The position numbers were made by a program, and so were the translations under genes. The notes under the pieces were generated by a model. That model did no database searches. It saw nothing but the letters and a program-made list of their open reading frames with translations, and was not told where the DNA came from. A stretch of DNA of 64,000 nt from NCBI GenBank assembly GCA_964482725.1, contig CAYZYT010000001.1, positions 4,632-68,631 on the forward strand. Reading direction: 5' to 3'. The number at the start of each line of letters is the position of its first letter. Position 1 is the stretch's first letter. Origin of the DNA: an uncultured bacterium. Lineage in GTDB: Bacteria; Omnitrophota; Omnitrophia; Omnitrophales; Aquincolibacteriaceae. Positions 22,446 to 64,000 of this stretch are shown one piece after another.

Positions 22446-22568
22446 AGTCTAGTCCCAACCAAGCCCTTCGTTAAAACAACGGTTGGGCCCGTACTGCGAA
22501 CCCTTAAATGGATGAATACCGCAGTGCTGGGAATCACTCTGCGGAGTTGACCTTTCGTCCGCATGGTC

Positions 22569-24014: not shown

Positions 24015-24071
24015 TTTAAGCTCCGCTTGAGATCCTGCTTTTCAAAAAAGGGCCTGCGATCGGGATCGATT

Positions 24072-30775: not shown

Positions 30776-30780
30776 CGCAT

Positions 30781-30850
30781 GGCCTCCTTGCATTCTTTGT
30801 ATGCACTTTGAGTATACACCGTACTATGCATTATTGCAAAGGAGACTTAG
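30781..30850. promoter_or_regulatory. Putative autoregulatory operator/promoter of the toxin-antitoxin pair: palindromes tgcat-N7-atgca, gtatac and ttgcaa in an AT-rich stretch.
   Basis: Read directly. Location immediately 5' of the antitoxin gene. Confidence 0.3.
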
Positions 30851-30952: not shown

Positions 30953-31363
30953 TTATTTAGGCTTGAAAGGATGCGACGCCGTCGGATCCCAAGTTCCATC
31001 CGAATTCAAAATGATCGTTTTATTTTTGAAATCATCCGGCGCGGTCGCTATGCGCTGGGCCGTCGCTTTGTAGGTCGGGGGAGACCCCGCCGTGATAACC
31101 ACCGTGTAATTGAACTTACGACTCGCGGGGGCATTAGGGTCATCGATGTCCAGTGAAGCCATAGAGGTCGTGTACGTCGATGAATTCTCGAGAAAGTAGG
31201 ACGCCTCCGCTTGACGGATGGCGGAAAGATTCGCAATCGCCTCAGCCACAGAGCCTTTCTCTTCCTGGCCGAAAAAACGCGGGAGCACGAACGCCGCCAG
31301 AACTCCAAGGACGACGACCACGATCAAAATCTCAGTCAGGGTAAAACCCTTATTATTTTTCAT
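30953..31363 (-). CDS. Type IV pilin (prepilin-type N-terminal cleavage/methylation domain).
   Basis: KGFTLTEILIVVVVLGVLAA class-III signal sequence. Three N-x-S/T sequons (NSS, NYT, NKT). Confidence 0.8.
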   Translation of the reverse strand: MKNNKGFTLTEILIVVVVLGVLAAFVLPRFFGQEEKGSVAEAIANLSAIRQAEASYFLENSSTYTTSMASLDIDDPNAPASRKFNYTVVITAGSPPTYKATAQRIATAPDDFKNKTIILNSDGTWDPTASHPFKPK

Positions 31364-31380
31364 CACGTCCCCCACCCTTT

Positions 31381-32064: not shown

Positions 32065-32490
32065 TTATGAAACTGGCCTGCAACCCTTGTTGCCGGTGAC
32101 TGTTGTATATTTTGTCATATCGCACGTAAAGACTCCGTCGATGGATAACGAAACAGAGCCGTTAGTGGCCGCGGTAGCAGCAGCCCCTCTATAGGCAGTG
32201 CAAGATCCGCTAGAACACGTATAACCAAAATTCGTCGTCGTGACCTTTTTCAATCCGAGCGATGCCCATGTGGTATTGGATGAGGAGTTGTCAACATCCA
32301 CATAACCTTGGGTCAGATCAAATGCATTCGCCTGAGCCCTGCGCAAAACACCCAGCACCTGCTGAGCTTCCGCGATATAAGCGTTCTCGGTCTGCCCCAG
32401 AAACCTCGGCAAGATCATCGCAGCCAAAACCGCTAAAATGATCACCACGATCAGAATTTCTATCAGTGTGAAGCCTTTTTGTTTTCTCAT
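32065..32490 (-). CDS. Type IV pilin (major pilin candidate).
   Basis: MRKQKGFTLIEILIVVIILAVLAA prepilin signal. Start at the second ATG with an AAGGAG Shine-Dalgarno 8 nt upstream. Sequons NSS, NTT, NGS. Confidence 0.8.
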   Translation of the reverse strand: MRKQKGFTLIEILIVVIILAVLAAMILPRFLGQTENAYIAEAQQVLGVLRRAQANAFDLTQGYVDVDNSSSNTTWASLGLKKVTTTNFGYTCSSGSCTAYRGAAATAATNGSVSLSIDGVFTCDMTKYTTVTGNKGCRPVS

Positions 32491-32525
32491 TGCATTCTCC
32501 TTTTGTGATTTTAATGCCTGCTTGC

Positions 32526-32531
32526 AGTATA
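32526..32531 (-). promoter_or_regulatory. Candidate -10 box (TATACT on the minus strand) about 35 nt upstream of the pilin start, followed by an A/T-rich tract.
   Basis: Read directly. Weak -35. A sigma-54 alternative was not found here. Confidence 0.25.
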
Positions 32532-32568
32532 CCCTGTTTTTTCCCAAAAAAACAGTTTTTGAAAAAGA

Positions 32569-37941: not shown

Positions 37942-38479
37942 TGTTTTTTTTGGCCCGTTGTTTTAACAAAGTTTCGAACACCAGTTGGATCTGTAAAGAA
38001 TATTTGCCTTCTTGAGGGCTGGAAGAAGGTTTCCATAATATGGAGATATCCCTGACCTTGATCGCCCCGCCGAACTTTTCGACCGCCTGCAGGAATTTCA
38101 ACAACGAGAAAAAAGTCCCCTGCCCATTCATCTCCATCTTCAACTTGGTGTATCCCCCATCCGATTCGGTCCGGGGGGTCAACGTCTCAACGTGGAGCTC
38201 GGTCCGTCCCGCGATGTCGGAGATCTTTCCAAGAAGTTGGGACCGTTCCGTGAGCGTTGCTAAAACACCCTCATGGGCGTCCAGGCTTTCTCTCAGCCCC
38301 TGAATTTCCCGGTAAAGCTCAATGCGTTTCTGAGAATCCGTGATGCTTTGCCGTAAGGTCGTGATCTCCTGAAAAACCGGCTGGATCATGACCGCATAGC
38401 ACAACACGAAGGTTGCGACCCCGGCCGCAGCCTTGATGGCCCATTCTTTTTGCTGTTCATTGATCTTCACGGTCGACAT
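37934..38479 (-). CDS. PilO-like pilus assembly protein.
   Basis: Single TM, coiled coil, C-terminal ferredoxin-like region. Operon position between PilM/N and PilP. Confidence 0.6.
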   Translation of the reverse strand: MSTVKINEQQKEWAIKAAAGVATFVLCYAVMIQPVFQEITTLRQSITDSQKRIELYREIQGLRESLDAHEGVLATLTERSQLLGKISDIAGRTELHVETLTPRTESDGGYTKLKMEMNGQGTFFSLLKFLQAVEKFGGAIKVRDISILWKPSSSPQEGKYSLQIQLVFETLLKQRAKKNNA

Positions 38480-41641: not shown

Positions 41642-42859
41642 CTAGGCCTGAGTTTTTCCCTTCAAACCCTCAAAAACCTCAGAGATGTTCCGGTGTTGGC
41701 CCTCCGCCCTATCTCCATGGCACTCGGGGAATTGATACAAAAATGGAAGTTTTAATTTCAAAAAGGCGAACAGTCCGGAAACTTTATGATCCATAAAGGC
41801 TTTTGTCCCTCGAAAGAAACCATGAAGGATAAGCCAAAAAAAACACCTCAGAGGATAGAAGCATGCCCTTTCCCATGCGGAAAATTCCCCGAGATCTTTT
41901 TTTGTTTTTTCGCGGGACCCTTGGGATTTCAAACTGCGCTCAAGAAGGGCCAGGTATTGCAGCCGGCGATACTTCCCATAATCGATCTTCAGGGATTTGA
42001 CTTTAAGCTTCTGTTGGATGGCAATACAGGCATCGAGCCATCCTGTGTTGATATACGAGCCGGGTAAAAATCGATAGCCGCACACTAAACTCGGCACTTG
42101 CTGGGAAGCATTCAAAAAAGAAATCCCCGCTTCTTCGTCATTATTGTGGTGAAAATAACCATAAGACCTGTTCGCGACCCCGATAATCACCAGCGGCTCC
42201 GGAACAATAACGGTCTTCTCGGAAAAGTAAAACAAAAGATTCATCGCGTAATAGTCGGGAAATAAGGATTGAAAAAAACGATCTTTTCCCTCGATCGACT
42301 CGATCAGTTCCCGTTTGACCAAGGCGTATTGCATGTTGTATTCAAAAGATAACCGGAATTCCAGGGTGTCCTGCACCAGGGGTTGGGCTTTCGCCCTTTC
42401 CAGTAAAAAAGGTTCCTTTCGTCCGTGAAAGAAAGGAGCAGCGCCGCATTCCTGCAAATACCCGTCGGGAAATGCCGCCATGACGCCAGGATAAATAAAC
42501 TGATAAGCTTTTGTGTAAATAAAGTCCGGGTGCTGAAATTTCTCTATCAGAGACCTCATCCTGGAAAAATAACCCGGACAGAGCGCGTCATCATCTCCCA
42601 GCATCACCACATAGTCCCCTAAAGACATCGCAAGGGCCTGGTTCCAATTTTCCGTAACCGAAAGAGAGCGAGACGTTTTAAAATACCGGATCCTTGAATC
42701 CTTCAAGGAAGCAACATATTCCCCCGTCGCGGGTCCGGTACCGTTGTCGGAGACGACAATCTCCCAATCCTTAAAATCCTGGCTCCGGACACTGAGGAGT
42801 GCTTGTTTGAGAAGTTCCGGACGATCTTTCGTTGGGATCAAAACAGAGAATTTTTCCAA
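41642..42859 (-). CDS. Family 2 glycosyltransferase (GT-A fold).
   Basis: FSVLIPTKDRPELLKQAL ... VVSDNGTG ... GDDD. Confidence 0.8.
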   Translation of the reverse strand: MEKFSVLIPTKDRPELLKQALLSVRSQDFKDWEIVVSDNGTGPATGEYVASLKDSRIRYFKTSRSLSVTENWNQALAMSLGDYVVMLGDDDALCPGYFSRMRSLIEKFQHPDFIYTKAYQFIYPGVMAAFPDGYLQECGAAPFFHGRKEPFLLERAKAQPLVQDTLEFRLSFEYNMQYALVKRELIESIEGKDRFFQSLFPDYYAMNLLFYFSEKTVIVPEPLVIIGVANRSYGYFHHNNDEEAGISFLNASQQVPSLVCGYRFLPGSYINTGWLDACIAIQQKLKVKSLKIDYGKYRRLQYLALLERSLKSQGSREKTKKDLGEFSAWERACFYPLRCFFWLILHGFFRGTKAFMDHKVSGLFAFLKLKLPFLYQFPECHGDRAEGQHRNISEVFEGLKGKTQA

Positions 42860-44602
42860 TCAATTTCCTTTTCTTCTGAATACGGCCGTATAGGAACTTC
42901 CCCTCAGGGGTCGATTTTCGAAATAATAAAAAACAGGATACAAGATCGCGCCAAAAAAAGAAGCTGCTTTTTTAAAAAGAGGACTCCGAAATCGATGAGC
43001 CAGGCTGAATCGCCAGCCAAACAAATTCCATCCCCGGCCGCCCGGGTCATCGCTGAAAAGGCCCTCAGAGACAAGCCCCATTTTTTCGCACCGGGTCTGA
43101 AGCAACCCGGAAGATATCAAATTGACATGCCTCGGCGCATCGATATGAGTCCAGGATCCCTTAAAGATCCGGAACTGCAGCGAATCCGGATTGGGCGCTG
43201 AAAGAATCAGCCAGCCGCCCGGTCTTAATTTTTGGACACAAGCCGATAAGACCGAGAAAGGATCTCTGAAATGTTCTACCACTTGCCACAAAACGATCGC
43301 GTCGAAATTTCCGGACGCCTCTAGCGCCGCAACAGGATCATCGGATTCCACCACGGGAATTTTCAGCGTATCGCGGATGAACCGGCAACATTTTGGATCC
43401 ATTTCGATGCAGGACATATCAAAACCCGCTTTTTTTGCCAAGTATGCAAAAGCACCGTTCGAAGGCCCGATCTCAAGCATTTTCCCGCTTGAAATGAACC
43501 TCTGGACCGTGGAAAGCTTAGGCTTTTCCTGGACCGCCCACCCCTCAAATTGTTTCCATGTTTCCGGAAGCATCGAATAATCCTCAGGATAATACCGGGA
43601 AAGATCTTCCGGGACAGGTTGTAAAAAAACAAACCCGCATCCACCGCAGCGATAATAATCAAAAGATTGATCCGTTATGTTCCGGTTTAGATCCTTTGTC
43701 TGAAAATAAAATGAAGCAGCGGCGCTGCAAAGAGGGCACGGTGGGGTCATGGGATCATGAGACTCCCCAAGCATCCTGGTCCCCCAGGCGGAGGCGGAAA
43801 GATCCCGCTTCATGTCCGGGGAAGCCTTTTCATAAAGTTCTGTCTGGTTATCCGAAATAAGCAAATTGCTTTGTTGCCCCTGCCGAAAGGTATCGCTTCG
43901 CCACCAATCCTCTTTGGGATAACCTTGTCCGTCTTTCCCGACGACCACGAGGTCCTGTCCCATCCCAAGGATCTGCCGGCTCAAACCCTTTTTCCCGCTT
44001 TCAAAACACCACGCATCCATTTTTCTCAATAAACGGGCCCGAACGATCTTCTCCATCACGCTCTTGCGGACCATAAACGCATTGGTTCGAATATGATAAT
44101 TCGGGAAAGGATCAAATCTGAATTTCATGTCAAAAAAATAGATCGCCCATCTCCAGCCAATGGCCAGTTTCTCCCGAAAAGTTTTTTCACTCTTTACGAA
44201 GCTCGAAACATTCGGGTAAAAACTCTCCCAAGAGCCTGTGACCCCGACGAGGCCGACTTTATCCCGACTGATCCAACTATGCATTTTTAGCAGCCACGCG
44301 TCATCGCGGATCACGGAAAAAGTATTGAGAAAACAAAAATAAACATAATTTCCAGATTTTAGCGCCTTAAAATAAGCATCGATATCATAACCCCGGTCCG
44401 GGATAAACATCTTCTGATGCGGCAATCCTTCGAGCAATGCCTCGTGCGCAGCAGTTTCTTTTTCCGCTGAAAACCCTTTGTATAAAACAAGCAGATCATG
44501 CCCCATCCCGCCACGATTCGCGCGATATGAATTGATAAAATTTTTGACGGGCTCAATGCCTTCTTTTTCCCGAACAAGATAAACCACCGCTGTTTCGGTC
44601 AT
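42860..44602 (-). CDS. Two-domain protein: N-terminal ~270-aa domain of unknown function plus C-terminal zinc-ribbon and class I SAM-dependent methyltransferase.
   Basis: CPLCSAAASF...YRCGGCGFVF Zn-ribbon. Motif I MLEIGPSNGAF. VLWQVVEHFRDP. Confidence 0.7.
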   Translation of the reverse strand: MTETAVVYLVREKEGIEPVKNFINSYRANRGGMGHDLLVLYKGFSAEKETAAHEALLEGLPHQKMFIPDRGYDIDAYFKALKSGNYVYFCFLNTFSVIRDDAWLLKMHSWISRDKVGLVGVTGSWESFYPNVSSFVKSEKTFREKLAIGWRWAIYFFDMKFRFDPFPNYHIRTNAFMVRKSVMEKIVRARLLRKMDAWCFESGKKGLSRQILGMGQDLVVVGKDGQGYPKEDWWRSDTFRQGQQSNLLISDNQTELYEKASPDMKRDLSASAWGTRMLGESHDPMTPPCPLCSAAASFYFQTKDLNRNITDQSFDYYRCGGCGFVFLQPVPEDLSRYYPEDYSMLPETWKQFEGWAVQEKPKLSTVQRFISSGKMLEIGPSNGAFAYLAKKAGFDMSCIEMDPKCCRFIRDTLKIPVVESDDPVAALEASGNFDAIVLWQVVEHFRDPFSVLSACVQKLRPGGWLILSAPNPDSLQFRIFKGSWTHIDAPRHVNLISSGLLQTRCEKMGLVSEGLFSDDPGGRGWNLFGWRFSLAHRFRSPLFKKAASFFGAILYPVFYYFENRPLRGSSYTAVFRRKGN

Positions 44603-44667
44603 TGTAAATTTTCACCCTTTATCGCTAGGAGCTTTACGAACGGTCTGGATCATGGCCCCGCGGGGCC

Positions 44668-45666
44668 TCAAAGTATCCTGAAATACTCACGGACCGTTTC
44701 TAAAAATGAGACGCTATACCCTGCACGCTCCAGGGAACGATCGGAAACCACACGCTGGGCCTGTATTTTTTTCCGCTGACCGAAGATCCCGGGAAGATCC
44801 GTGAGCGGCTCCACGCTCCCCCGCGCAAGGGCTCCTGCCAGGTCCCATCGTCCAGAAAAAAAATAGATCAAAAAACGTAGCCCGGCATAGAACAAAGAGA
44901 TCACGAGTCCTCTCAGGACTCCCGCAACCTCAAAATTCTTCAAAATATTTCGGAGCGCGTTCTTTTGCATGTAATAGACGCGGACCGGCGACAATCTCGG
45001 ACCATTCGTGCTTCCCACCTTGTGATACATCACCGAAGAAGGTTGAAAGACCATCCGATAACCCCGCAAAAGCAAGCGCCAACAAAGATCCACATCTTCA
45101 TTATACGCAAAATAGCTTTCATCAAAGCCTCCGACCTCGCGGAACAAACTCGTTCTCATGAGCATGCTTGCGCCGCTCACACCGCCCCGGTAGCCGCGGT
45201 CGTTATATTGTCCGCGATCCTTCTCCCCCAACCCCATATCGCAACCGATCCCCACCGGGGTGATCATCAGGCCAACACTATGGATCGTGTCCGGCCGATC
45301 ATAAAAATAAATTTTGCTACCCGCCGCGGCCGCCAAGGGATCCGATTCCAAGGCTTTGACCAGTTCCTCAAGCCAATCTTCTTTGACACGGACATCATTA
45401 TTCAAAAAAGCAAAATAGGGCGCGTCAATGAGCTTCACCGCATGATTGTAGGCCCCCGTGATCCCGCAGTTTTTTTCGATCCGTATAATACGGACCCACG
45501 GGAATTCTTTCCGGACATACTCCGCGGAGCCATCCTGAGAACCGTTGTCCACTAGATAGACCTTTTGATCTGGGTAGGTTTGTTTCCCCAGAGAGGAAAA
45601 GCACTCCTCAAGCAAAGGACGCCCGTTGTAATTCAAGACGAGAACAGAAACTTTCTCGCCGCTCAC
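44668..45666 (-). CDS. Family 2 glycosyltransferase.
   Basis: VSVLVLNYNGRPLLEECF ... YLVDNGSQDGS ... DxD region. Confidence 0.8.
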   Translation of the reverse strand: MSGEKVSVLVLNYNGRPLLEECFSSLGKQTYPDQKVYLVDNGSQDGSAEYVRKEFPWVRIIRIEKNCGITGAYNHAVKLIDAPYFAFLNNDVRVKEDWLEELVKALESDPLAAAAGSKIYFYDRPDTIHSVGLMITPVGIGCDMGLGEKDRGQYNDRGYRGGVSGASMLMRTSLFREVGGFDESYFAYNEDVDLCWRLLLRGYRMVFQPSSVMYHKVGSTNGPRLSPVRVYYMQKNALRNILKNFEVAGVLRGLVISLFYAGLRFLIYFFSGRWDLAGALARGSVEPLTDLPGIFGQRKKIQAQRVVSDRSLERAGYSVSFLETVREYFRIL

Positions 45667-45743
45667 TTTCCAAACCTCACGAGAGTATTCCTCGGTGGAT
45701 GGGAGATTGAATTAGAATATTTCAAACTCCGTTTTTTAAAATT

Positions 45744-47264
45744 TCAGTATTGAAGAAAAATTTTTCTTAAAAATTTCAGAAGGGGCCCTTCGATATAAAA
45801 ATTGAATTGGTTATTTTCAATCCGCCAACTGCAGACGCGCCACAAACAATTTTTAAAAAGACCCACCAGAGATATCGTTTTCTGCGCCCCATACATCCCC
45901 ATGCCGGAGTGGGCCAGAAATTGGCTCGAGCTCACCACTTTATATACGTTCTCGGCATCGTCTACGTTTAACGATTTGATTTTTTCGACGGACTGAAACC
46001 TGAAGACATCGTCTGGGATATTTTCAGGCTCTTGGAACTTAGAAAAATCTGTTTCCCAGAGAGAACCCGGATAGGGTCTGTACGTTTGAAAAAACGGAAC
46101 GTTCGCATAGGGGCCCATTTCATATATTTTTTTGATAAGACGCCCTGTTTCAAGCATCTCCGCCGGTGTTTCCCCCGGCCAACACATAACAAATGAGAAG
46201 GAGAGCGTGACATGCGCCTTATTACAATACTCAACTGCCCGAAGAATATCTTCACGGACAATTCCCTTGTTAAGGATTTTCAGCAACCGGTCACTCCCGC
46301 TCTCTCCCCCGACGCCAAACCCATCGCCACCACAAGCCTTGATTCTTTTTAAGACCCCCACGTTTATATAATCATCCCTTATGTCAGAAACCCGGATCGT
46401 AGCATTCCATGCGATTTTGCCGTAAAGATCGTCATCGCCTTCAATGAGACTCAGTAAATCGAATGTCCTTACTTTGTCCGAAAAAAAGTGCTCTTCCTGG
46501 AAGTTGAAAAAAGTGATGTCGTATTTTTGTTTTAAATCCTTAATTTCTTCGTAGATAGACCTTGCCGGCCGAGGACGATAGCGTCTCTCGGTTATGACAT
46601 TGATGCAGAAAGAACATCGAAAACGGCACCCGAGACCGGTAAGAATGGAAAAGCCTCGGCGCTCCTTGCCATCGATCTTTATATTTAATACATATTTGTT
46701 AATGCTCTCCCTATAAAAAACATCGTCGATCCTATCGGGCAATTTCTCAAAGGGCGTTAATGGCGCTCTGGACGTCCTCAAGAGGGAACCGTCTTTATTT
46801 TTTGCGCAAATATTAGGCACGCGTCCAATTTCAGTCCTGTTATTCAAATAATCCATCAACGGGACTAAGGAAGCGTCCGCTTCATTGAGAACACAGAGAT
46901 CCACCCAGGGCGTCCGCACAAGACTCTCCGGCATCAATGTCGGGTGGACACCCCCAAAAACGATGGGGGTTTCAGGGAATCTTTTCTTTATTGTTTTAGA
47001 TAAGGTGATCGCTGAATATATCTGCGACGACATGCAGCTGAATCCAACAAAAGCAATGTCCTTACGTTCCAATTCAGAAAGAACCCTGTCCTCCCACCTC
47101 GGGTCCACATTAGCGTTTATGATGGATGCGGAGTAACCCTTCTTCAAAAGAATGGTCCCGATCAAGCCAAGCCCAAGGGGGAAATCTTTTTGTTGGATAC
47201 TCCGGACGCATGTCCCGTCTTTCAACTTAAACGAAGGATTGATTAAAATGGCGTGTGATTTCAT
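45744..47264 (-). CDS. Cobalamin (B12)-binding-domain radical SAM enzyme (class B radical SAM, putative methyltransferase).
   Basis: N-terminal B12-binding Rossmann-like region (IAFVGFSCMSSQ...VFGGVHPT) and CxxxCxxC cluster GCRFRCSFC. Confidence 0.8.
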   Translation of the reverse strand: MKSHAILINPSFKLKDGTCVRSIQQKDFPLGLGLIGTILLKKGYSASIINANVDPRWEDRVLSELERKDIAFVGFSCMSSQIYSAITLSKTIKKRFPETPIVFGGVHPTLMPESLVRTPWVDLCVLNEADASLVPLMDYLNNRTEIGRVPNICAKNKDGSLLRTSRAPLTPFEKLPDRIDDVFYRESINKYVLNIKIDGKERRGFSILTGLGCRFRCSFCINVITERRYRPRPARSIYEEIKDLKQKYDITFFNFQEEHFFSDKVRTFDLLSLIEGDDDLYGKIAWNATIRVSDIRDDYINVGVLKRIKACGGDGFGVGGESGSDRLLKILNKGIVREDILRAVEYCNKAHVTLSFSFVMCWPGETPAEMLETGRLIKKIYEMGPYANVPFFQTYRPYPGSLWETDFSKFQEPENIPDDVFRFQSVEKIKSLNVDDAENVYKVVSSSQFLAHSGMGMYGAQKTISLVGLFKNCLWRVCSWRIENNQFNFYIEGPLLKFLRKIFLQY

Positions 47265-47300
47265 AACTCTCAGTTTTAAGAAGATCTTTTTAAGAACACA

Positions 47301-48224
47301 CTATTCGTTTCGGCTGGGGCTAATAATTCCCTTCAGGAATCCAAAATGCCACTGAATAAAAGCTACGATCGAGAGAAATACTTTTGTTACGTCGAAGGAA
47401 AGCCGGCACAGCGTCCCGGCCGCGAGGAGCGCCATGGCGATCAGCGCAGGAACCGGAAAAAAGAAAAGACCGAAAAGGCCCAGAAAGGTTACAAGCGGAA
47501 GCCACTGCACCGGACGAAAGGCCCCGTGCATCCGCACGAGCTTCCCCTGCGCCCAGCCGTAACGGAACATCATCCGGCTAAATCCTTGCACCGTCCGGGT
47601 CCGGTAATGGTAGACCACGGCCTGCGGATTCATCATCAGTTCCCATTTCTTTTGCCGGATCCTGTGATCCAGCTCAAGATCCTCCCCAGGCCAAAAATCT
47701 TCCAGGAATCCGCAGAACGCGTCGTAGACACTTCTGCGATACATAACATTGCAGCTCGCGTTATGATTCACCTCACGAAGAGCTCTCGCCGTCTGCATAT
47801 AGTTGGTCATAAAGCCAAAAGCCTGGAGGAGCTGCTGGACCTTTCGAGCGAACGGGACTTCATCCGCAGGACTTTTTTGAATACCGCCGACCCCCGCGAC
47901 ATTCTCACCCACAAAACCTTTCAAGAGTTCTTTGATCCAATCCTGCGGCACGACACAATCCGCATCGGTAAAGGCAACGAAATCGCCGTGGGCCTGCATC
48001 ACGGCCCGGTTTCGCGCTACGGAAGGTCCTTCGCCATTCATACGGAACACTTTAACACCCGCATGGTCCGCAGCAATTCGCCCCGTCTGATCCTCAGATC
48101 CGTCATCAACCACGATCACTTCGTAATAGGGATAATCCAGCCGGGACACCGAATCCAGACATGGAGCGATCGTCCTTTCGGCATTCTTAGCGGCAATAAT
48201 GACGGAGATGCAAGGATCACTCAT
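47301..48224 (-). CDS. Family 2 glycosyltransferase.
   Basis: ISVIIAAKNAERTIAPCLDSV ... VIVVDDGSEDQT. Confidence 0.8.
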   Translation of the reverse strand: MSDPCISVIIAAKNAERTIAPCLDSVSRLDYPYYEVIVVDDGSEDQTGRIAADHAGVKVFRMNGEGPSVARNRAVMQAHGDFVAFTDADCVVPQDWIKELLKGFVGENVAGVGGIQKSPADEVPFARKVQQLLQAFGFMTNYMQTARALREVNHNASCNVMYRRSVYDAFCGFLEDFWPGEDLELDHRIRQKKWELMMNPQAVVYHYRTRTVQGFSRMMFRYGWAQGKLVRMHGAFRPVQWLPLVTFLGLFGLFFFPVPALIAMALLAAGTLCRLSFDVTKVFLSIVAFIQWHFGFLKGIISPSRNE

Positions 48225-49651
48225 CGGGAGATCAGATAAGAAAAAAAGTTGAACCCGCCGCGAAGTTTCCGGTACAGGTCAAAAATATTTTTATTATCGA
48301 AAAGGAATTTCAGGATAAATCCGGGACGCAAATAAAACCTCTTGAGGCCCGCATCCACCAAGGCATTGATCTCTTGGATCGTGATATCCGGATAATCCAC
48401 CACCGCGCCCTGTTCTCCGCCATCCAACCAGTCTTCCCAGGCCTTCGCTTTGAGCAGGCCCTTACTTTTACAATAATCAAAATATTCGGAACCCGGCAAC
48501 GGAGAAGCGGCCGAGAACTGGAGCGTATCGAGGCCCAGCCCCAGAGCGAATTCGATCGTCTTCTTTGCCGTCTCCCTTGTTTCCCCAGGCAATCCCAACA
48601 CAAAGCAACCGTGGATATCGATCCTGGCTTTTTTGGCAGCACGGACAAAATCCAGCGCCTGCGCTACCTTCAGAGATTTTTTGACATTATCCAGAATATC
48701 CTGATCCCCGGACTCAAAGCCCACCAGGAACTGCCGGCACCCGGCCTTTTTCATTTCCGCAAACAGTTCTGCGTTACAAATGTCCGGGCGCGCATTGACC
48801 GACCAGTTTATCTTGAGACCGCGCCGGAGGATCTCCTGGCAAATCTCAAGCGCCCGTATTCTGTTCACCGTGAACGTATCATCCTCGAAAAAAAATTCGC
48901 CGCGCTTCAACTTCGGGAAAAGCCGGAGATCATGCTCGATCTCATCGACGATATTCTGAGGAGACCGGAACCGGTACTGATGCCCGAACATCAACTGCGG
49001 CCACTGGCAAAAGGTGCAACGGAACGGACAGCCCCGGCCGCCGATGATATTGATATGAGGATAAAGCCTTCCCGCATCAAAATATTTCATGATATCCAGA
49101 AATTCCCACGCAGGAAAAGGCAGGGCATCCAGATCTTGAATGAAAGGCCGGTGGGGCGTGAGTTTTGGCTTGCCGTTCTCTAGGTAACAGATCCCCGTCA
49201 CGCGCGAAAGATCGTTTTGATTCTCAAGAATATCCTTGATCGTCTCGTCGAACTCTCCGAGAGCGATCACATCGATACTGCCCCGCGCCACGCTCAAGGT
49301 TTCTTCGGGCAAAGCGCTCGCATGCGTCCCGACCATGATCACCTGAGTGGCGCTTTCTTCCTTACAGATCCGGGCGCATTGAATATCGGAGGTGATCGAC
49401 GGCGTGGTGGAATCCAGAACGACGAAATCCGGTTTTTTCTCGCGGATCACTTCCCGGAGCTTTTCCTTATCCCAGCCCTTCGCGACAAAATCATAGAGCT
49501 CGACCTCACACCCTGCCTTTTTCAATACCGCGGCTGCGTAGCAAAGCCAGTCCGGCGGCCGGATCGCCCGTCCTCTTGTACGCGCCGGCCATCGCTGGCA
49601 ACGGCAGTAATCCCGGATGAATGGCGGATTAATAATGAGAGTTTTCATCAT
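48221..49651 (-). CDS. Second cobalamin-binding-domain radical SAM enzyme.
   Basis: B12-binding region (PDFVVLDSTTPS...VIMVGTHA) and GCPFRCTFCQW CxxxCxxC motif. 4-nt overlap with the downstream glycosyltransferase. Confidence 0.8.
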   Translation of the reverse strand: MMKTLIINPPFIRDYCRCQRWPARTRGRAIRPPDWLCYAAAVLKKAGCEVELYDFVAKGWDKEKLREVIREKKPDFVVLDSTTPSITSDIQCARICKEESATQVIMVGTHASALPEETLSVARGSIDVIALGEFDETIKDILENQNDLSRVTGICYLENGKPKLTPHRPFIQDLDALPFPAWEFLDIMKYFDAGRLYPHINIIGGRGCPFRCTFCQWPQLMFGHQYRFRSPQNIVDEIEHDLRLFPKLKRGEFFFEDDTFTVNRIRALEICQEILRRGLKINWSVNARPDICNAELFAEMKKAGCRQFLVGFESGDQDILDNVKKSLKVAQALDFVRAAKKARIDIHGCFVLGLPGETRETAKKTIEFALGLGLDTLQFSAASPLPGSEYFDYCKSKGLLKAKAWEDWLDGGEQGAVVDYPDITIQEINALVDAGLKRFYLRPGFILKFLFDNKNIFDLYRKLRGGFNFFSYLISR

Positions 49652-51274
49652 TCACTCTTCGGCTATGAGATAGGAAACAGGCTCTTTCAACATTGGATAA
49701 ACCTTGCCCAACCGCAAGGGCCTTGTCTTCAGGAACTTTTCCACGTTCAAGGAACCGCCCTTTTTCAGGATCAGCGCCCAGGGGATAAACCCTTCCTGCC
49801 CATCGGAGGTAAATCCCATATGCACCATGTGGTAGTTCGATTCAACATACTTTTTTATTTCCGGCGACATCGTCTGGAAATACGGAAATGAAAAGACACT
49901 CAAGTATTCTATGCCTAATTCTTTTTCTTTGCGCTTAAAATCATCCAGGTCGATAGGCCAGCCGCAGCGCCGGTCGGCATAAGTACAAACCCCGTAACCC
50001 TGACTCCACGTATAATGAAAGAAAGGCTTCCCCGCCGAGACATGTTTTCTCAGATAATCTCCCGCCACGTCCTGGCCAAACAGCACATAATCATACTGAC
50101 GCATCGTGGCAGCATAAACATCCGGCAGGGAGATAAGCAAGAAACCTACCAGCAGGATAGACCCGGCTCGGCTCCGAAAGATCTTATTCAAAAAAAGAGA
50201 GACCTCCCAAAGAAAACAAGCGGAACACAAAGCCACTACGAATAAGAACGGCATCTGATAATAGTTGTGTTGGTTCATGTAGTCAGAGAATACAACGCTA
50301 TAGACCAAGATCCCCAGCAGCCATCCCAAAACAGTCTTTCGCAACAAGGGACTCGTCTTTGACACAAAAACCAAGACAACGCCTCCCAGCGCAGCCCCCA
50401 CGTAAAATCCCGTGAAGTTTTCTTGAAAAACATAACTGTAGAGCCTGGGGCCAAAATCATGCCAATAGGGCATTCCGAAAAACTGCATCAGTTTTGTCCT
50501 GCCCTCGAGCCCTCCGAAAATCATTTCTTTGGGACACAACCCAAGGATCACTCCCAAAGGGATAAGGGCAAAAAAGCTATGACGGAGGGCGCCCCAGAAA
50601 GAATACTTCCGGATAATTTCCTTATAAGGGACGATCAGCAACAAAGGTATCACCAAAACAAGAAAAGTCAGTTTACACAAAACGATCGCCGCCATGGCCA
50701 GGGCGCCGTAGAATAAAAATCTGAAATTCAAACTACGGGAAAACTGCAACCCGTAGAAGATGGCGATCAGCATAAATAAAAACGCCGGGCTCTCCGGCTG
50801 AAGATTTCTCGAAAAAAAATTCCCTAAGGGCAAGAAGCTCAGAATCAGCGTCGCCAAAATACCGATCGCCGGAGTTTGCGTCAAAGCAGTGCTTATGCGG
50901 AACATAAACAGCAAGGAGAGCAGAAAGTAAAAAACATTGATCCATCGTGAAGCCGCTAGAAAATACCCGTCCCCCAACAGCTTATAGCAAAAAGCGGTTT
51001 GCCAAGCGGTGAAATAACCTACGGGAGGAATCGATGCCCCGGACGGAGAGGGGCTAAGTCCATGATAGAAATCAATTTGCCGCGCGAGATAATCATCCGC
51101 TTTCACCATATTTCGCGCCATGCTGATAAATTCGTTTTCCTTCATGTTGTGATAACCCAGGGCAGGAAAATCGATGTGATAGAAGCGAATAGCCAATGCA
51201 AAAACAAGGATCCCGGCAAGGATCCAAAGAGTTTTTCGTGCGATCGGCCGTTCGGGGAGCAACCCTGCGTTCAT
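49652..51274 (-). CDS. GT-C fold glycosyltransferase (PMT/ArnT-like, GT39/GT83 type), polytopic membrane protein.
   Basis: About 11 TM helices. First periplasmic loop has an acidic motif (KENEF). Start placed at MNAGLLPER to avoid a 130-nt overlap. Confidence 0.7.
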   Translation of the reverse strand: MNAGLLPERPIARKTLWILAGILVFALAIRFYHIDFPALGYHNMKENEFISMARNMVKADDYLARQIDFYHGLSPSPSGASIPPVGYFTAWQTAFCYKLLGDGYFLAASRWINVFYFLLSLLFMFRISTALTQTPAIGILATLILSFLPLGNFFSRNLQPESPAFLFMLIAIFYGLQFSRSLNFRFLFYGALAMAAIVLCKLTFLVLVIPLLLIVPYKEIIRKYSFWGALRHSFFALIPLGVILGLCPKEMIFGGLEGRTKLMQFFGMPYWHDFGPRLYSYVFQENFTGFYVGAALGGVVLVFVSKTSPLLRKTVLGWLLGILVYSVVFSDYMNQHNYYQMPFLFVVALCSACFLWEVSLFLNKIFRSRAGSILLVGFLLISLPDVYAATMRQYDYVLFGQDVAGDYLRKHVSAGKPFFHYTWSQGYGVCTYADRRCGWPIDLDDFKRKEKELGIEYLSVFSFPYFQTMSPEIKKYVESNYHMVHMGFTSDGQEGFIPWALILKKGGSLNVEKFLKTRPLRLGKVYPMLKEPVSYLIAEE

Positions 51275-52458
51275 CTTCGAATCGCGAGAAGGCTGAGAAA
51301 GAAAGAGGAGAAGATGGTCTGGAGGCCCAGGATCATGAAGATCATCGCGGCCACGGATTCGCGGATACGGTAAAGGGCTCCGAAAGAATTCTGCCACCAT
51401 TCCACGAAAATGCTTGTGTTAAGCGCTAACCCCAAAAAGAACAAGGCCGCGCCGGCCAAAAGTCCGATCTCCAGTTTAAAATATTTGGCAAACCAGTGAA
51501 GCGCGGGCTCCTCATCCAAATACCCCTGTTTGATCGCGAAAAGTTTCGCATAAAGTCCCGTGTTGATGATCTGGTATCCCAGAACGCCCAGAAAAGCGGC
51601 CAGGATGAACATATGAATATCCCACGCATGCCCCAAAAAATTCACCGGTCCGCTCATCAGAAGAAGCATGACCAGGAACCCGAAACCGCTGAGCACCGCC
51701 CCGGGGACCATGTAAAGCCACGTCGGGCAAAAGAGAAGCATGAAGCGGAGATGCCGCCAGGCGTCCTTCACCGGGCTTAGCTTCGAGATTCCTTTGCGCT
51801 TGGAATAATCGATCGGGACTTCGAGGATCTTCAGTTTTTTAAGAAGGGCCTCCATGACCATCTCGGAGGCGAATTCCATGCCGAGGCAATGCAAATTCAG
51901 TTTTTGATAAGCCTTTTGGGTAAAACTACGCATCCCACAATGAATGTCCGAAAGCCCCGTTCGAAAAAAAAGCCGGTAAAGTCCGGTCAAAAAGGGATTC
52001 CCAAGATAACGGTTCGCCCACGGCATGGCCCCTTTTTGGATCTTCCCCTTGAACCGGGACCCCATCACAAAATCGCACCCTTTTTTCAGCGGCTCCAGGA
52101 ACAGCTCCAGGCGGCTAAAATCGTAGGTATCATCGCCGTCGCCCATGACAAGATATTTCCCCCGGGCTTCCTTAAAACCGCGAAGATAGGCCGAGCCGTA
52201 CCCAGGCACAGATTCCACAACCACGCGTGCCCCGGCGGCTGCAGCATTCTGGAAGGAGTGGTCCGTGGAACCATTATCCACCACGATCACTTCACCGCTC
52301 ACCCGGTTCTCTGTAAAAAACCGGAGGGCCTTCCCGACGCAACCCGCGATCGTCAGTTCTTCATTCAAGCACGGAATGACCACGGACACTTCTATTTCAT
52401 TCTCACCCACGAGGATCTCCCCAGAGGATCTCAAAAACGTAGATCTTTTCTTTATCAT
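51271..52458 (-). CDS. Polyprenyl-phosphate glycosyltransferase (GT2, ArnC/DPM1/GtrB-like) with C-terminal TM helices.
   Basis: VSVVIPCLNEE ... VVDNGSTDHS ... MGDGDD ... C-terminal membrane anchor. Confidence 0.8.
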   Translation of the reverse strand: MIKKRSTFLRSSGEILVGENEIEVSVVIPCLNEELTIAGCVGKALRFFTENRVSGEVIVVDNGSTDHSFQNAAAAGARVVVESVPGYGSAYLRGFKEARGKYLVMGDGDDTYDFSRLELFLEPLKKGCDFVMGSRFKGKIQKGAMPWANRYLGNPFLTGLYRLFFRTGLSDIHCGMRSFTQKAYQKLNLHCLGMEFASEMVMEALLKKLKILEVPIDYSKRKGISKLSPVKDAWRHLRFMLLFCPTWLYMVPGAVLSGFGFLVMLLLMSGPVNFLGHAWDIHMFILAAFLGVLGYQIINTGLYAKLFAIKQGYLDEEPALHWFAKYFKLEIGLLAGAALFFLGLALNTSIFVEWWQNSFGALYRIRESVAAMIFMILGLQTIFSSFFLSLLAIRR

Positions 52459-55009
52459 CCGAATAAAAAGGCTTGAAGCTTTTCATCCCTTGACCGCCAA
52501 GGAAATACAGCTTCACGAAAAGGGATTCCGCCAATTCGTCGCTGCCGATGAGCGCCTGGTACTCTCCCCCATTCCGAACGATCACGATCGTTTTCACATA
52601 ATCGCCTTTTTCGTTCACGATCTCCCGCTTCTTTCCATTTTCATAAAGAACGGCTTTTTTGGGAATCCGGTATTTTCCATCCAGGGAAGAATAAAACAGG
52701 ATGTCCCGGGAGCCCGTGTTGTAGACCACCCCGTTATCAAAATAAAGCAGTTGCCCGGCTTCTTTACCGGAAGCGGGAACCGAGGCAAACGTGTAGCGGC
52801 AGGATAACCCGTCATTCTTCCCGCGATCTTCGATCCCCGTCATGGCCGTCTGATAACTTTTCAGGGCCTCGTCCGGGGACAAACCAAAAATCGTCCGGAG
52901 TCCCGCCAGAACCTCGCCTTCCGGCTTGTGACGGTTCGCCGAAACAAATACCGCCCGAAAATCCCAACTTCCCAAAAAGGAAATGCTGGACATCTTCTCA
53001 AGCATGGATCCTTCCACGATAAAATAAGCCGGCGCGGGCCGTTGATACAAATGATCCAAAATTTTTGCTGCCGCCGCGAGCGGGACTTTTTTCTGGGCTA
53101 AAAACGCCTCGCCTTTTTTCCGGTCCAACCCCAAAAGATCTTCTAAGGCTTGCCGGCACTGAAACGGGTCGGGGATATATTTCTGCAATTCGTAATAGGT
53201 GACGCTCGAATTGTTGTTCAACATGCGAAGGATCGCGACCGCTTTGTTCTCGTCTTTTTCGATCAAGGCCCGCGCCATCCAATAACAAAGCTGCGCGTTC
53301 TGGGTTTGGCCGTCAAAGATCACACGCCTTTTCCCGTAATACTTGAACCAACTGCCGTTATCCCACCAGGAATTGAGGATGGCTTCTTTCGGAGCCTTCT
53401 GGTCAACGTAGGTTAGGGCTTTATACCAGCCTTCATGCATCATGGGCCGGATCTCGAGAGCTTTGGTCCAGCCGGTTAAAAAAATAGCTTGGACCCATAA
53501 TCCCAGACACAACAAAAACAAGGCAAGCCCGGCAAAGCGCATCAGTCCATTTTTGATCCTGAAAATGAGCGCTGGGATGGCCTCTCCGACAAAAACCCCA
53601 AAGAATAAGGCCAGCGGCAGGGAAAGATAGATCGCAAACCGGTTCCCTTTCAGAGAGGCCGCCAGCATGAAGAGAAACCAGCACGCCATCATGATCACGG
53701 GCTCCCTCCGCTCGCCGCGCCATTCTCTTAGAATCACCACGATCCCGCCAAGAAGCGATAATAGAAAAATGACTTTCCCGTAGAAAAGTGAAGCCATCGT
53801 CTTGAATGTAAGCGGCATCAGCTCGATGACCGTATAGTAGGGATTCGGCCAGATATCCTGAACTCCGGAAGAAGTGCCCGACAAAGCGGACCCGATCCGG
53901 AGGACGTCTCTCACCCAAATAATTTGATCAAGCATATGCGGGCCGATCAGCCAGTACACGAACACTGCGCTGGTTACATAAAAAACCGTCGCTGATAAAA
54001 ACAACGGAACGATCTTTCCGCGGCAATGTTCCCATCGCCTGGGTCTCTCAGCCAGGTCCCCGAGGATCACTGCCACGAAAAAGCCTGCGCTCACCACAAC
54101 CATAAACCACCAGCCGGACCACGTGATGGCATAAAGGCCTTGAAAAAAACCGGCCAGCAGGGAGAGAAGGATCGTTCTCCGTAGATTGCCCCTTGGGCCC
54201 ACCGCTTCCAAAAGCGTCCAGGTCACCGCCAGGGCGAGGATCAGACTGAGCATGTCAAAGTCGTACCAGCCCGCACAACTGCGGCTGATACACATTCCCG
54301 TCAATCCAACGAAAAAAGTACTTAGGAACGCGGATAATCTTGAGAACCAGCGAACCATAAAAGCATAAAAAAGAATCAGGAAAACCGCCGCGTAAAATAC
54401 GGGGATATAGAAAAGGAAGGTATCCAGCGGCATCGGGGTCAAAAGACTGAACCCCATGAAAAGAAATGCGGAAAGATAGAACAGGAGCCGGAAATAAAAA
54501 ACTTCCGCCCCTTGGGGGGCCAACATTAAACTGTCACGGCTTTTCCCATCGATCTTTTGATCTCCGGGATGGCCGTTCTTAATGATGTTCCGGGTCCAGA
54601 TCGCCCAGCTAAAAGGATCGTATTCCATAAAAAACGTCTGGCCACGGAAGTCTTGATAGCGGCCTTTCAACTGGCTGTATTCTTTTTCGACAGCTTTACT
54701 GAACCCCGCCTTATCCAGGAGGATCTCCTGACTTACGGCTTCGAGCCCCTGACGGGCTTGCGTCTTCGTCCCGTTGAAAGTCCCCCCGGGAATTTTCTGA
54801 AGATGCTGGTCGACGATATTGAGAACGGCTTCATTTTTCAATTGGGGGAAATAGCCCGGAAAAACTCGAACGGTGATATTCACGCCAAGGCAGATGGCAA
54901 GGAGAAGACCCCCGATAAGCGCACTGGAGCCAAGATCCGAGACGTCGATGGAAGAGAAAAAAGTCTCTGCCGACTGAACCCACTTCTTTGCCCGCGAAGC
55001 AGGGCTCAT
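52403..55009 (-). CDS. Oligosaccharyltransferase of the STT3/AglB/PglB family (GT66). Polytopic N-terminal domain plus large C-terminal periplasmic domain.
   Basis: First-loop motif [14 protein letters not shown] (compare HEFDPYFNYR of STT3) and WWDNGSWF (the WWDYG catalytic motif) after ~13 TM helices. 868 aa. Confidence 0.75.
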
Positions 55010-57196: not shown

Positions 57197-58327
57197 TTAA
57201 AATAGCTCTCCCTGCGCCGAAACAGGAAGCTCGCCTTTGGCGCCGAGCCCGCTGATGCCGACCCCCAGCAAACGGATGGGCTTTCGGCCAGCCAGTGTTT
57301 TCTTCTTTAAAAGATCACAGGCGATCTCGTGAAGGGTCTGCCAATCCGGAGGCGGCGCGGGAAGCGTCCTGGAACGCGTGATCTGTTCAAAATCGTGGTA
57401 TTTCACCTTGAGCACCACAGTCCTCCCGAAGCGCCCTTCCTGCTTTAGATCATAAAAAACATGCTCCGCGAGCCCGGCCAGTTTCCGTTTCAGCCACGGC
57501 AGGTCCGTGACGTCCTTGGCGAACGTTTCCTCAGAACTCAACTGTGTCCGTTCCCAGTGGGGGTTGACTTCCCGGTCATCCTCGCCTCTCGCTTTATGAA
57601 AAAGTTCAAGCCCCCACTTCCCCAATTTCGCACAAAGGTCCTGCGGCTTCACCCCCCAAATATCCCCGCACGTGTTAAGCGTCATCCCGTGAAGGATCTC
57701 TTCGGTGCGCGGGCCGACACCCGGGATCTTCCGGACCGGGAGGTCTTTTAAGAATGCCAGGACTTTATCGGGAAAGACCACTGTCAGGCCATCCGGTTTT
57801 TGCATATCCGAAGCGATCTTCGCAAGGAACATATTGGGCGCCACACCGGCGGAGGCTGTGAGTTTCGTCACGGCAAAGATGTGCTGTTTGATCAGACCCG
57901 CGAGCTTTACGGGATCTTCCAGCTTGAGTTTGTTCTCGGTCACATCGAGATACGCTTCATCGAGCGAGACTTGTTCCACAAGAGGTGTGTAGGTATGAAA
58001 AATCGCCATGATGGATCGGGAAGCGGTGCTGTATTTTTCAAAATCGGGGTAGAGGAAAACACCGTGCGGACAAAGACGTTTGGCCTGAGCGGTCGGCATA
58101 CCGGAATGAATGCCAAACTTCCGGGCTTCATAAGAACACGTGCTCACAACACTGCGGCTATTGGGATTCCCGCCTACGATCACGGGCTTGCCTTTGAGAT
58201 CGGGGTTGTCGCGCTGCTCCACGGCCGCAAAGAATGCGTCCATGTCGAGGTGGATGAATTTCTTAAAACCGGAGAACGGAGAGTGGAGGGCGGATGGCGA
58301 CAAGCCGGCTTTTATGCTCTCCTCCAT
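57197..58327 (-). CDS. dinB: DNA polymerase IV (DinB, Y-family).
   Basis: IHLDMDAFFAAVEQRDNPDLKGKPVIVGG ... SLDEAYLDVT canonical DinB motifs. 21-aa N-terminal extension relative to typical DinB, so the true start may lie downstream. Confidence 0.9.
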   Translation of the reverse strand: MEESIKAGLSPSALHSPFSGFKKFIHLDMDAFFAAVEQRDNPDLKGKPVIVGGNPNSRSVVSTCSYEARKFGIHSGMPTAQAKRLCPHGVFLYPDFEKYSTASRSIMAIFHTYTPLVEQVSLDEAYLDVTENKLKLEDPVKLAGLIKQHIFAVTKLTASAGVAPNMFLAKIASDMQKPDGLTVVFPDKVLAFLKDLPVRKIPGVGPRTEEILHGMTLNTCGDIWGVKPQDLCAKLGKWGLELFHKARGEDDREVNPHWERTQLSSEETFAKDVTDLPWLKRKLAGLAEHVFYDLKQEGRFGRTVVLKVKYHDFEQITRSRTLPAPPPDWQTLHEIACDLLKKKTLAGRKPIRLLGVGISGLGAKGELPVSAQGELF

Positions 58328-63510: not shown

Positions 63511-64000
63511 CTAAGAACACGCTCCGTTCGCAGCAGAAGTATCCCCGAAACGTCTTTCGCGCATCCGATAATCTCCGAGCGCCTTTTCAAATTCATCCCG
63601 GGTGAATTCCGGCCAGAACTTTTGTGTGATATAAAGCTCCGCATAAGAGATCTGCCACAAAAGAAAATTGCTGATCCGCATCTCTCCGCTCGTGCGGATC
63701 AAAAGCTCCGGGTCCGGCATGTTCGCGGTATAAAGATTTTTTGAGAAAGTCTCTTCGGTGATCTCGGAAGGCTTGATGTCCCCGGACACGGCCTTCTCTG
63801 CGATCTTCTGACACGCCCGCACGATCTCACGACGGCTGGAATAGCTCAAGGCGAATGTCACGACGAGGCCCGTGTTATGCTTGGACGCCTCCATGGCGTG
63901 CGTGAGTTTTTTTTGTAACGCCGGGGCAAGGTCCCCCATTTCGCCGATCACATTAAAAATGCAGTTGTTTTTGATCATCGCTTCGATCTTCTTATCAAGA
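63511..64000 (-). CDS. uppS: Undecaprenyl-diphosphate synthase UppS, 5' end beyond the window.
   Basis: RTSGEMRISNFLLWQISYAELYITQKFWPEF is the C-terminal UppS signature. The ORF-track fragment starts at an internal Met and the gene continues past 64000. Confidence 0.85.
   Translation of the reverse strand, partial: LDKKIEAMIKNNCIFNVIGEMGDLAPALQKKLTHAMEASKHNTGLVVTFALSYSSRREIVRACQKIAEKAVSGDIKPSEITEETFSKNLYTANMPDPELLIRTSGEMRISNFLLWQISYAELYITQKFWPEFTRDEFEKALGDYRMRERRFGDTSAANGACS

Follow-up and report, generated by a model that had tools for sequence, protein, structure and literature searches.

An AglB-like oligosaccharyltransferase and a candidate N-glycosylation locus linked to type IV pilin genes in an Omnitrophota bacterium

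Introduction

Does a bacterium of the phylum Omnitrophota carry an N-glycosylation system resembling that of archaea, and, if so, which proteins would it modify? The question is raised by a stretch of 64,000 nucleotides (nt) from an uncultured member of the Aquincolibacteriaceae (contig CAYZYT010000001.1 of assembly GCA_964482725.1, forward-strand positions 4,632 to 68,631), which is called the window below. A preliminary description had proposed that the interval 52403-55009 of the window encodes an STT3/AglB/PglB-type oligosaccharyltransferase (OST) heading a locus for glycan assembly. OST-dependent N-glycosylation in bacteria is known mainly from PglB, in Campylobacterota, some Desulfobacterota and a few deep-sea-vent bacteria (PMC8342417, PMC12229607). 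Relatives of the window protein are already publicly annotated as 'STT3 domain-containing protein'. No paper pairing Omnitrophota or Omnitrophica with an oligosaccharyltransferase was present in the literature searched, and one preprint mentions glycosylation in Omnitrophota only in passing (bioRxiv 10.1101/2023.11.21.568195).

Taken as a whole, the observations are best explained by an active single-subunit AglB-type N-OST in Omnitrophota that receives its donor from the products of co-directional genes and has type IV pilins as its main acceptors, an explanation to which we assign a probability of about 0.7. The locus thus points to an undescribed bacterial N-glycosylation system, Agl-like in its working but housed in a diderm bacterium and tied to a type IV pilus operon.

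Family, fold and motifs of the oligosaccharyltransferase

The OST gene is an uninterrupted open reading frame (ORF) of 868 amino acids (aa), from ATG to stop, that coincides exactly with 52403..55009 on the minus strand. The preliminary description had given the length and limits correctly and had named no strand; the plus-strand translation of the same interval is full of stops, and nearly every called gene between 29 and 64 kb lies on the minus strand. The ATG overlaps the stop codon of leuD by 4 nt (55006-55009). The OST gene is therefore the first glycosylation gene of the co-directional block, as had been proposed, but not the first gene, since leuC-leuD precede it in the same direction.

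The profile search suggested as a check placed the protein above the curated cutoffs of two Pfam models, PF02516 (STT3; 91.7 bits, E=9.4e-26, cutoff 24.5, aa 117-510) and PF21436 (STT3-PglB_core; 29.8 bits, cutoff 23, aa 546-683). An AlphaFold2 model built on 28 homologues (predicted local distance difference test, pLDDT, 88.7; predicted template modelling score, pTM, 0.86) has a first transmembrane (TM) helix at aa 28-48, a long first external loop (EL1, aa 49-174), twelve more TM helices and then a mixed alpha/beta periplasmic domain (aa ~520-868). The number of helices expected before the WWD motif, about 13, is thus the one seen, and the predicted structure has the 13-TM GT-C fold with an extracytoplasmic globular domain that is listed, together with the sequence motifs, for the STT3/AglB/PglB family (PMC8342417). 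In a Foldseek comparison with the PDB, the first 19 places were taken by PglB, AglB and STT3 only, the best being 5OGL (E=1e-21), with ArnT, AftA, DPY19 and PMT far behind. Assignment of the OST to another GT-C family was ruled out by these lower fold scores; neither that outcome nor loss of the periplasmic OST domain, both named beforehand as fatal to the assignment, was found.

A search of the PDB with the single sequence gave weak C-terminal matches only, and a family profile search was needed to align the motifs of the TM part with the solved OSTs. In this alignment the catalytic residues fall into register, and they were followed through 58 Omnitrophota and 20 DPANN relatives. Both motifs that had been pointed out, EYDPFSW (aa 129-135) and WWDNG (aa 548-552), are present, far beyond chance. 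The acidic motif of EL1 is E129-Y-D131, in which D131 corresponds to D47 of AfAglB and is kept in 57/57 aligned Omnitrophota and 20/20 DPANN sequences. In the second external loop (EL2), GWYD250FD252ML aligns with GYYDTDML of ClPglB, and D252 is kept in 77 of the 78 (57/58 Omnitrophota, 20/20 DPANN). In the fifth external loop (EL5), T393-V-I-E396 aligns with TIME of ClPglB and with the corresponding Glu of AfAglB; both T and E occur in 78/78, so that E396 is invariant in the two groups (58/58 and 20/20), as is R457 (58/58 and 20/20), which aligns with the conserved RF arginine of solved OSTs. W548-W-D-N-G552 aligns with WWDYG, and its W, W, D and G are invariant (78/78); the fourth residue is N in the closest relatives only, Q in a few others and F or Y in the rest of the family. 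As a separate observation, WWDNGS contains an N-G-S sequon (aa 551-553) inside the catalytic motif, shared by the closest relatives only (P0001-P0003) and probably incidental.

Two sites depart from the canonical forms. The motif that follows WWDYG is DGGK in PglB and euryarchaeal OSTs and DNXTZNX[T/S] in eukaryal and TACK OSTs (PMC8342417), whereas the window OST reads D566-G-Q-T-Q570; it retains D and G, has no Lys and contains no double sequon. A DGxSQ variant is common to the Omnitrophota and DPANN clades, and DGQTQ is a clade-specific variant that does not exclude membership of the OST family. On the sequence alignment the DK/MI site, which makes up the Ser/Thr pocket and is DxxKxxxM/I in the DK and MxxIxxxI/V/W in the MI type, reads M669-L-E-K672-M-S-S-I676, a hybrid of both types; K672 is kept in 73/78, and DPANN sequences have W at the final position of MxxKxxxI. 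About 80 extra residues between TM1 and D131 are found clade-wide. By all features examined apart from the DGGK-type motif, the protein belongs to the STT3/AglB/PglB family, with an ambiguous DK/MI site, and the proposed reading of this gene is supported.

The conservation of motifs and the predicted fold make it very probable that the protein is active as an N-OST, recognising N-X-S/T and using the canonical metal-dependent mechanism. D131, D250/D252 and E396 would coordinate a divalent cation on the periplasmic face and activate the carboxamide of Asn, R457 would bind the phosphate of the polyprenyl-linked glycan, and WWD548-550 together with the M669xxK672xxxI676 helix would bind the +2 Ser/Thr of N-X-S/T, so that the glycan could be moved en bloc to Asn. 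A pseudo-enzyme was considered and ruled out by the conservation of all catalytic residues.

The enzyme might instead have been repurposed, with a non-protein acceptor (lipid, peptidoglycan or polysaccharide) or with hydrolysis of lipid-linked oligosaccharide, a known activity of OSTs (PMC8342417), as its main reaction, and any link to pilins would then be coincidental. The deviations of the DGGK and DK/MI motifs from both canonical forms, and the N of the window OST in place of Y/F in WWDxG, could be read in this way. However, the peptide-binding elements are strictly kept (WWD and K672, as counted above), other GT-C families are lower on fold, and the adjacent pilins show an excess of N-X-S/T over S/T-X-N of the kind that selection for glycosylation sites predicts (see below). 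We regard repurposing as improbable.

Phylogenetic position and host

When each GTDB species was represented by one genome, 577 relatives were found. The best ~57 are Omnitrophota metagenome-assembled genomes (MAGs), followed by Woesearchaeota, Nanoarchaeota and other DPANN-like genomes, and the OST clade occurs in about 58 Omnitrophota species-level genomes. An exhaustive hidden Markov model search with the OST family gave 1792 clusters (50% identity) at E<=1e-30. In a neighbour-joining (NJ) tree, the Omnitrophota OSTs were monophyletic in 96% of bootstrap replicates, the DPANN group in 86% and the union of the two in 82%; the outgroups were AfAglB and ClPglB (partial sequences) and three distant AglB-like proteins, and saturated distances were capped. 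The Omnitrophota clade therefore appears to be sister to the DPANN archaeal AglBs, at that 82% NJ bootstrap, and the MxxK and DGxSQ variants common to both clades agree with this grouping. Given the saturated distances and the simple NJ tree, any inter-domain transfer may have run in either direction. The window OST scored 36.8 bits against the NCBIfam PglB equivalog NF050801 (cutoff 1300) and 53.9 bits against the archaeosortase-associated archaeo_STT3 model TIGR04154 (cutoff 450). Scores so far below both cutoffs indicate an AglB-like bacterial clade distinct from PglB; judged by sequence, the window OST is not a PglB.

With DPANN archaea as the nearest relatives outside the phylum, and with several public MAG labels that are plainly unreliable, an artefact of assembly or binning has to be weighed, in which an archaeal OST block was chimerically joined to a bacterial contig or binned with it by mistake. 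Several observations argue against this. The OST gene overlaps leuD by 4 nt, and bacterial genes lie on both sides of it on one contig: the window holds a secretin, RND/TolC efflux proteins, an RseP-like protein, Dxr, UppS and leuCD, and its CdsA and RND proteins fall into 90%-identity clusters in which every named member is a Candidatus Omnitrophota. The order leuD-OST-GT2, where GT2 is a family 2 glycosyltransferase, is repeated in an independent Logan assembly, and GC content is even across the OST block, which together with the bacterial flanks makes a chimera unlikely. Furthermore, the Omnitrophota OSTs form their own clade with an Omnitrophota-specific synteny, and two of the loci (L005, L009) are on closed Omnitrophota MAG chromosomes. 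We consider an artefact extremely improbable, and archaeal contamination was rejected as the source of the OST block. UppS shows that a bacterial polyprenyl carrier is made in this organism.

Some observations on the relatives may be recorded here. The MAG labels 'uncultured Planctomycetales' and 'Methanosarcinales' (e.g. L004, L027, L063, L067) look unreliable, the OSTs concerned clustering with Omnitrophota or DPANN, and one of these doubtfully labelled records is a 774-kb chromosome. The OST is found in complete Omnitrophota genomes, for example CP070797 and CP070807. Some Omnitrophota MAGs have two OST paralogues of different subclades (L003 and L024 in STA_84, L041 and L045 in AMR_MDS_3867); the window genome, too, may hold a second OST copy outside the window.

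Type IV pilins as candidate acceptors

In the window, genes for assembly of a type IV pilus (T4P) or a type II secretion system (T2SS)-like machine and two pilin genes come after the glycan block on the same strand (Table 1). The association is closer in other genomes. Upstream sequence of 2 kb or more was available for 47 Omnitrophota-clade loci. In 17 of them, an operon of the form pilM-(pilN/O)-secretin-pilB-pilC followed by 2-6 pilin genes stands immediately upstream of the OST gene on the same strand, and the GT2 gene comes after the OST gene. These 17 include L015, L028, L032 and L052; the last pilin gene abuts the OST gene, and in L032 (476-12484) it overlaps the OST start. No such operon was found upstream of the OST gene in the 15 DPANN loci.

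We then compared the sequons of the pilins with expectation. The 73 adjacent pilin-like proteins contain 213 N-X-S/T sequons (136 NxT, 77 NxS) versus 128 of the reversed S/T-X-N (binomial p=2.4e-6), and their globular parts contain 212 versus 102.5+/-8.4 in composition-preserving shuffles (z=13). Sequon density was 2.07 per 100 aa in a first-pass set of 67 pilins, against 0.40 for 233 further ORFs from those loci. Counted by locus, 17 of 18 were above their own shuffle mean; ties aside, the reversed count was exceeded in 13 of 15 (p=0.004). Among the 47 window ORFs analysed, the pilin at 30953..31375 has the highest sequon density and the other window pilin the second highest, with 2.86 and 1.88 per 100 aa against a mean of 0.38. 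Such a directional excess beside an OST gene is what selection for N-glycosylation sites predicts, and it resembles the situation of archaeal pilins and archaellins, both substrates of AglB (PMC5131992). From the synteny and these sequence statistics, the type IV pilins encoded nearby are the most likely main acceptors, and we think it rather probable that they are major substrates of the OST.

Possible donor pathway

The co-directional neighbours that had been claimed for the OST gene (GT2s, a GT-C, a methyltransferase and two B12-radical SAM enzymes) are real by profile matches and fill 41642-55009, or 13.4 kb. The intergenic gaps of this block are 0-77 nt, or the genes overlap. A scan of 40-57.5 kb for promoter and terminator consensus sequences gave counts no higher than those expected from shuffling and therefore does not define the operon boundaries. 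The claim that the set amounts to a complete toolkit was overstated, since neither a phosphoglycosyltransferase (PGT) nor a flippase was found in the window or among the annotated unassigned genes of five related loci.

Synteny was examined by tblastn of the window proteins against 80 fetched loci. The AglJ-like GT2 that overlaps the 3' end of the OST gene is directly downstream of it in 40 Omnitrophota-clade loci, where its identity, mostly 52-66%, exceeds that of the OST; in 7 DPANN loci a weaker match to the GT2 lies closely downstream. The GT-C was found in 21 other loci, and a close copy of the HpnJ-like radical SAM enzyme (57-66% identity) in 12. The genes inserted in other loci, five of which were annotated, encode nucleoside diphosphate-sugar epimerases/dehydratases, GT2, GT4, methyltransferases and more B12-radical SAM enzymes. 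The best model for the GT2 is AglJ (TIGR04182, 160 bits versus a cutoff of 325), a haloarchaeal transferase that makes dolichyl phosphate (Dol-P)-hexose is also among the best, and the protein carries a GT2_TM_C membrane domain.

On the basis of this synteny, and with no PGT found, it is possible rather than probable that the donor is begun by the AglJ-like GT2 on undecaprenyl monophosphate. The membrane GT2 would charge undecaprenyl phosphate with the first sugar, the soluble GT2s would lengthen the glycan, and the methyltransferase and the B12-radical SAM enzymes would modify it, the latter possibly by C-methylation or by an HpnJ-like rearrangement of the lipid-linked sugar. Some flippase would then export the lipid-linked glycan, and the GT-C, which is presumably a periplasmic transferase needing a polyprenyl phosphate-linked sugar, would add a further sugar outside.

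Alternatively, the system might follow the canonical bacterial style, in which a PglC/WecA-type PGT encoded elsewhere begins a glycan on undecaprenyl diphosphate, while the GT2 and the GT-C form a separate decoration pair (ArnC/ArnT, GtrB/GtrC or Ppm1/Pmt-like) that acts on the glycan or on another periplasmic target. A GT2 with TM helices and a GT-C are the classic pair of polyprenyl phosphate-sugar synthase and user, and here they are adjacent with a 4-nt overlap. The GT-C is well folded (model pLDDT 92.8) and generic, the phosphate-binding R457 is common to users of mono- and diphosphate carriers, and the window covers 64 kb of a 356-kb contig. On the other hand, the GT2 gene adjoins the OST gene in 19 Omnitrophota-clade loci with no GT-C match and closely follows it in the 7 DPANN loci, there is no PGT among the annotated unassigned genes of the five neighbouring loci, and both of the best GT2 models are archaeal, AglJ being the enzyme that begins a monophosphate-linked N-glycan (PMC3871713). 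The diphosphate route is in our view rather unlikely.

By structure the GT-C could not be placed in a specific PMT, ArnT or ALG family: the fold is generic, and ALG12, STT3, AglB and ArnT match it alike, at ~1e-8. The start of the GT2 gene is disputed in public calls (395 aa from 52458 in NCBI, 387 aa in Logan). Finally, a transporter with an MMPL/sterol-sensing domain (2155-4506, minus strand) shares the window with the HpnJ-like radical SAM enzyme; HpnN and HpnJ of the hopanoid pathway are relatives of the two families, and the radical SAM enzyme may have a lipid instead of a glycan role.

Weight of the evidence and comparison with known systems

The explanation preferred here, an active AglB-type N-OST acting on pilins with a donor made by the neighbouring genes, combines two kinds of statement. 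The family, the fold, the conserved motifs, the place in the tree, the synteny and the excess of sequons are observed; the catalytic activity, the structure of the donor with its mono- or diphosphate link, and the identity of the acceptors are inferred. The explanation has several points against it. The DGGK motif, thought to aid binding of the lipid-linked donor, is replaced by DGQTQ, and the donor pathway is incomplete as seen, with respect to PGT and flippase. The GT2 is below the AglJ equivalog cutoff and could serve the GT-C, as in the ArnC/ArnT or Ppm1/Pmt pairs. The arrangement in the window is unlike that of the 17 loci, the pilus operon being ~12 kb downstream of the OST gene and not upstream. 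The sequon counts of the window pilins are small (4 and 3), and the enrichment is uneven, with none in about five loci. In addition, the pilin set came from a simple motif regular expression and includes 17 pairs at >=70% identity.

Among the closest known systems, the archaeal Agl pathway follows the same logic. In Haloferax volcanii, dolichyl monophosphate carries the glycan, which is put together by AglJ, AglG, AglI and AglE and transferred by AglB; the final mannose is attached outside the cell by AglD and AglS, and methylation is the task of AglP (PMC3871713). The window has a parallel set of an AglB, an AglJ-type GT2, soluble GT2s, a methyltransferase and a GT-C of the kind that depends on a Dol-P-sugar. 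Unlike Haloferax, the organism of the window is a diderm bacterium and produces undecaprenyl carriers, and the B12-radical SAM enzymes of the window are absent from the Haloferax pathway as described in that source. The OST and the GT2 are also set apart from the archaeal system by their scores with archaeo_STT3 and AglJ, and the OST differs from archaeal AglB in having DGQ(S/T)Q for DGGK, MxxKxxxI at the DK site and the ~80 extra EL1 residues. Its EL2 motif is DxD, as in PglB, whereas AfAglB (AglB-L, 3WAJ/7E9S) has DxH.

With PglB of Campylobacter lari, Campylobacter jejuni and Desulfovibrio, the window protein shares the nature of a bacterial periplasmic single-subunit N-OST, the best Foldseek match (5OGL), the similarity of GWYDFDML to GYYDTDML, and the TIxE, RF arginine and WWD motifs. 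It differs in sequence, with about 15% identity, the low PglB equivalog score and the position of ClPglB outside the Omnitrophota and DPANN clade. The pgl loci begin with a phosphoglycosyltransferase gene and carry the flippase PglK, neither of which was found in the window or among the annotated genes of the five related loci. Compared with eukaryotic STT3 (yeast, human STT3A/B), the window OST has TVIE and not SVSE and lacks the double-sequon motif, and it is single-subunit and prokaryotic.

The proposed job, glycosylation of pilins, is of the same kind as that of PilO/TfpO and PglL, which glycosylate type IV pilins in the periplasm from a polyprenyl-linked donor; these, however, are O-linking enzymes of the Wzy_C/O-antigen-ligase family, while the window OST is of the STT3 family. 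To our knowledge, bacterial pilin glycosylation is done by such O-oligosaccharyltransferases (PilO/TfpO, PglL), unrelated to STT3. Bacterial surface structures have been described as mainly O-glycosylated and archaeal ones as N-glycosylated (PMC6098224), so that N-linked type IV pilins would be unusual in a bacterium.

A separate AglB-like clade across a whole bacterial phylum would change the picture of bacterial N-glycosylation and would point to gene exchange between Omnitrophota and DPANN archaea, both ultra-small and host-associated. Omnitrophota have T2SS/T4P-like loci with class III signal-peptide genes, and predation on archaea has been proposed for them (bioRxiv 10.1101/2023.11.21.568195), an ecological setting that is compatible with such exchange. 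It would also suggest that the pili or secretion filaments thought to mediate host contact or predation by Omnitrophota (same preprint) are N-glycosylated, as archaeal pili are. The locus may show how a bacterial OST works with a carrier that is begun by a GT2 and is possibly a monophosphate, and the clade would offer new single-subunit bacterial OSTs, probably with a plain N-X-S/T sequon, for glycoengineering. The widest version of this picture is a phylum-wide Agl-like N-glycosylation that is shared with DPANN through ancient inter-domain transfer, sits in T4P/T2SS-like operons, modifies pilins by N-linkage and possibly uses a GT2-begun glycan on undecaprenyl monophosphate; we put it forward tentatively, at a little under even odds. 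It would then count as a third bacterial lineage of N-glycosylation, independent of the others, and as the first case of N-linked type IV pilins.

Table 1. Genes of the glycan block, the pilus operon and their context in the window
Feature	Position	Strand	Evidence or remark
UppS, undecaprenyl-diphosphate synthase	63511..63978	-	cut by window end; context outside locus
OST, STT3/AglB type	52403..55009	-	868 aa; Pfam, AlphaFold2 model, motifs
GT2 with C-terminal membrane domain, polyprenyl-phosphate type (AglJ / Dol-P-hexose transferase / PpgS-like)	51271..52434	-	overlaps OST 3' end
GT-C, PMT_2, annotated GT39/ArnT-like, 540 aa	49652..51274	-	Pfam, structure model; no WWD motif
HpnJ-like B12-binding radical SAM enzyme	48221..49648	-	TIGR03471 370 bits, cutoff 578
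Soluble GT2	47301..48224	-	profile matches
Second B12-binding radical SAM enzyme	45744..47264	-	profile matches
GT2	44668..45666	-	profile matches
580-aa protein, C-terminal half SAM methyltransferase	42860..44602	-	N-terminal ~290 aa without Pfam match
GT2, N-terminal GT2 domain and long C-terminal extension	41642..42859	-	profile matches
PilM-like	38493-40022	-	T4P/T2SS-like assembly
PilO-like	37934-38479	-	T4P/T2SS-like assembly
185-aa ORF, no assignment	37384-37941	-	within pilus operon
Secretin	35591-37387	-	T4P/T2SS-like assembly
PilB/T2SSE ATPase	33881-35575	-	T4P/T2SS-like assembly
PilC/T2SSF	32569-33888	-	T4P/T2SS-like assembly
Type IV pilin-like, KGFTLIE class III signal	32065..32547	-	N_methyl 38.8 bits; 3 N-X-S/T; candidate acceptor
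Type IV pilin-like, KGFTLTE	30953..31375	-	N_methyl 33.8 bits; 4 N-X-S/T; candidate acceptor

Other genes in the window

Just past the last pilin gene and before a response-regulator gene there is a gene for a PemK/MazF-type toxin (30193-30793, minus strand, 128.8 bits); a small ORF that overlaps it upstream has no Pfam match and may be the antitoxin. The window also has a gene for a 23S rRNA-intervening-sequence protein (28933-29382, minus strand; PF05635, 111 bits, with a weak bAvd-like match). A 689-aa ORF at 26743-28812, among the few large genes on the plus strand, has no Pfam match. The region 16087-26027 (minus strand) encodes a membrane-fusion protein, a TolC-like outer-membrane factor and, in tandem, two RND pumps of the AcrB family (1032 and 1085 aa), and looks like an MdtABC-style heteromeric efflux operon.

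Two HisKA_7TM histidine kinases, one with a GAF domain, are encoded close together at 6555-9056 and 10450-12717 (minus strand). The first part of the window (1-2000) has a GC content of 41.5% versus about 52% elsewhere, and its ORFs at 1-744 and 877-1416 are without Pfam match. A DinB-like gene at 57197-58327 is called as 348 aa in NCBI, and its full ORF is 376 aa.

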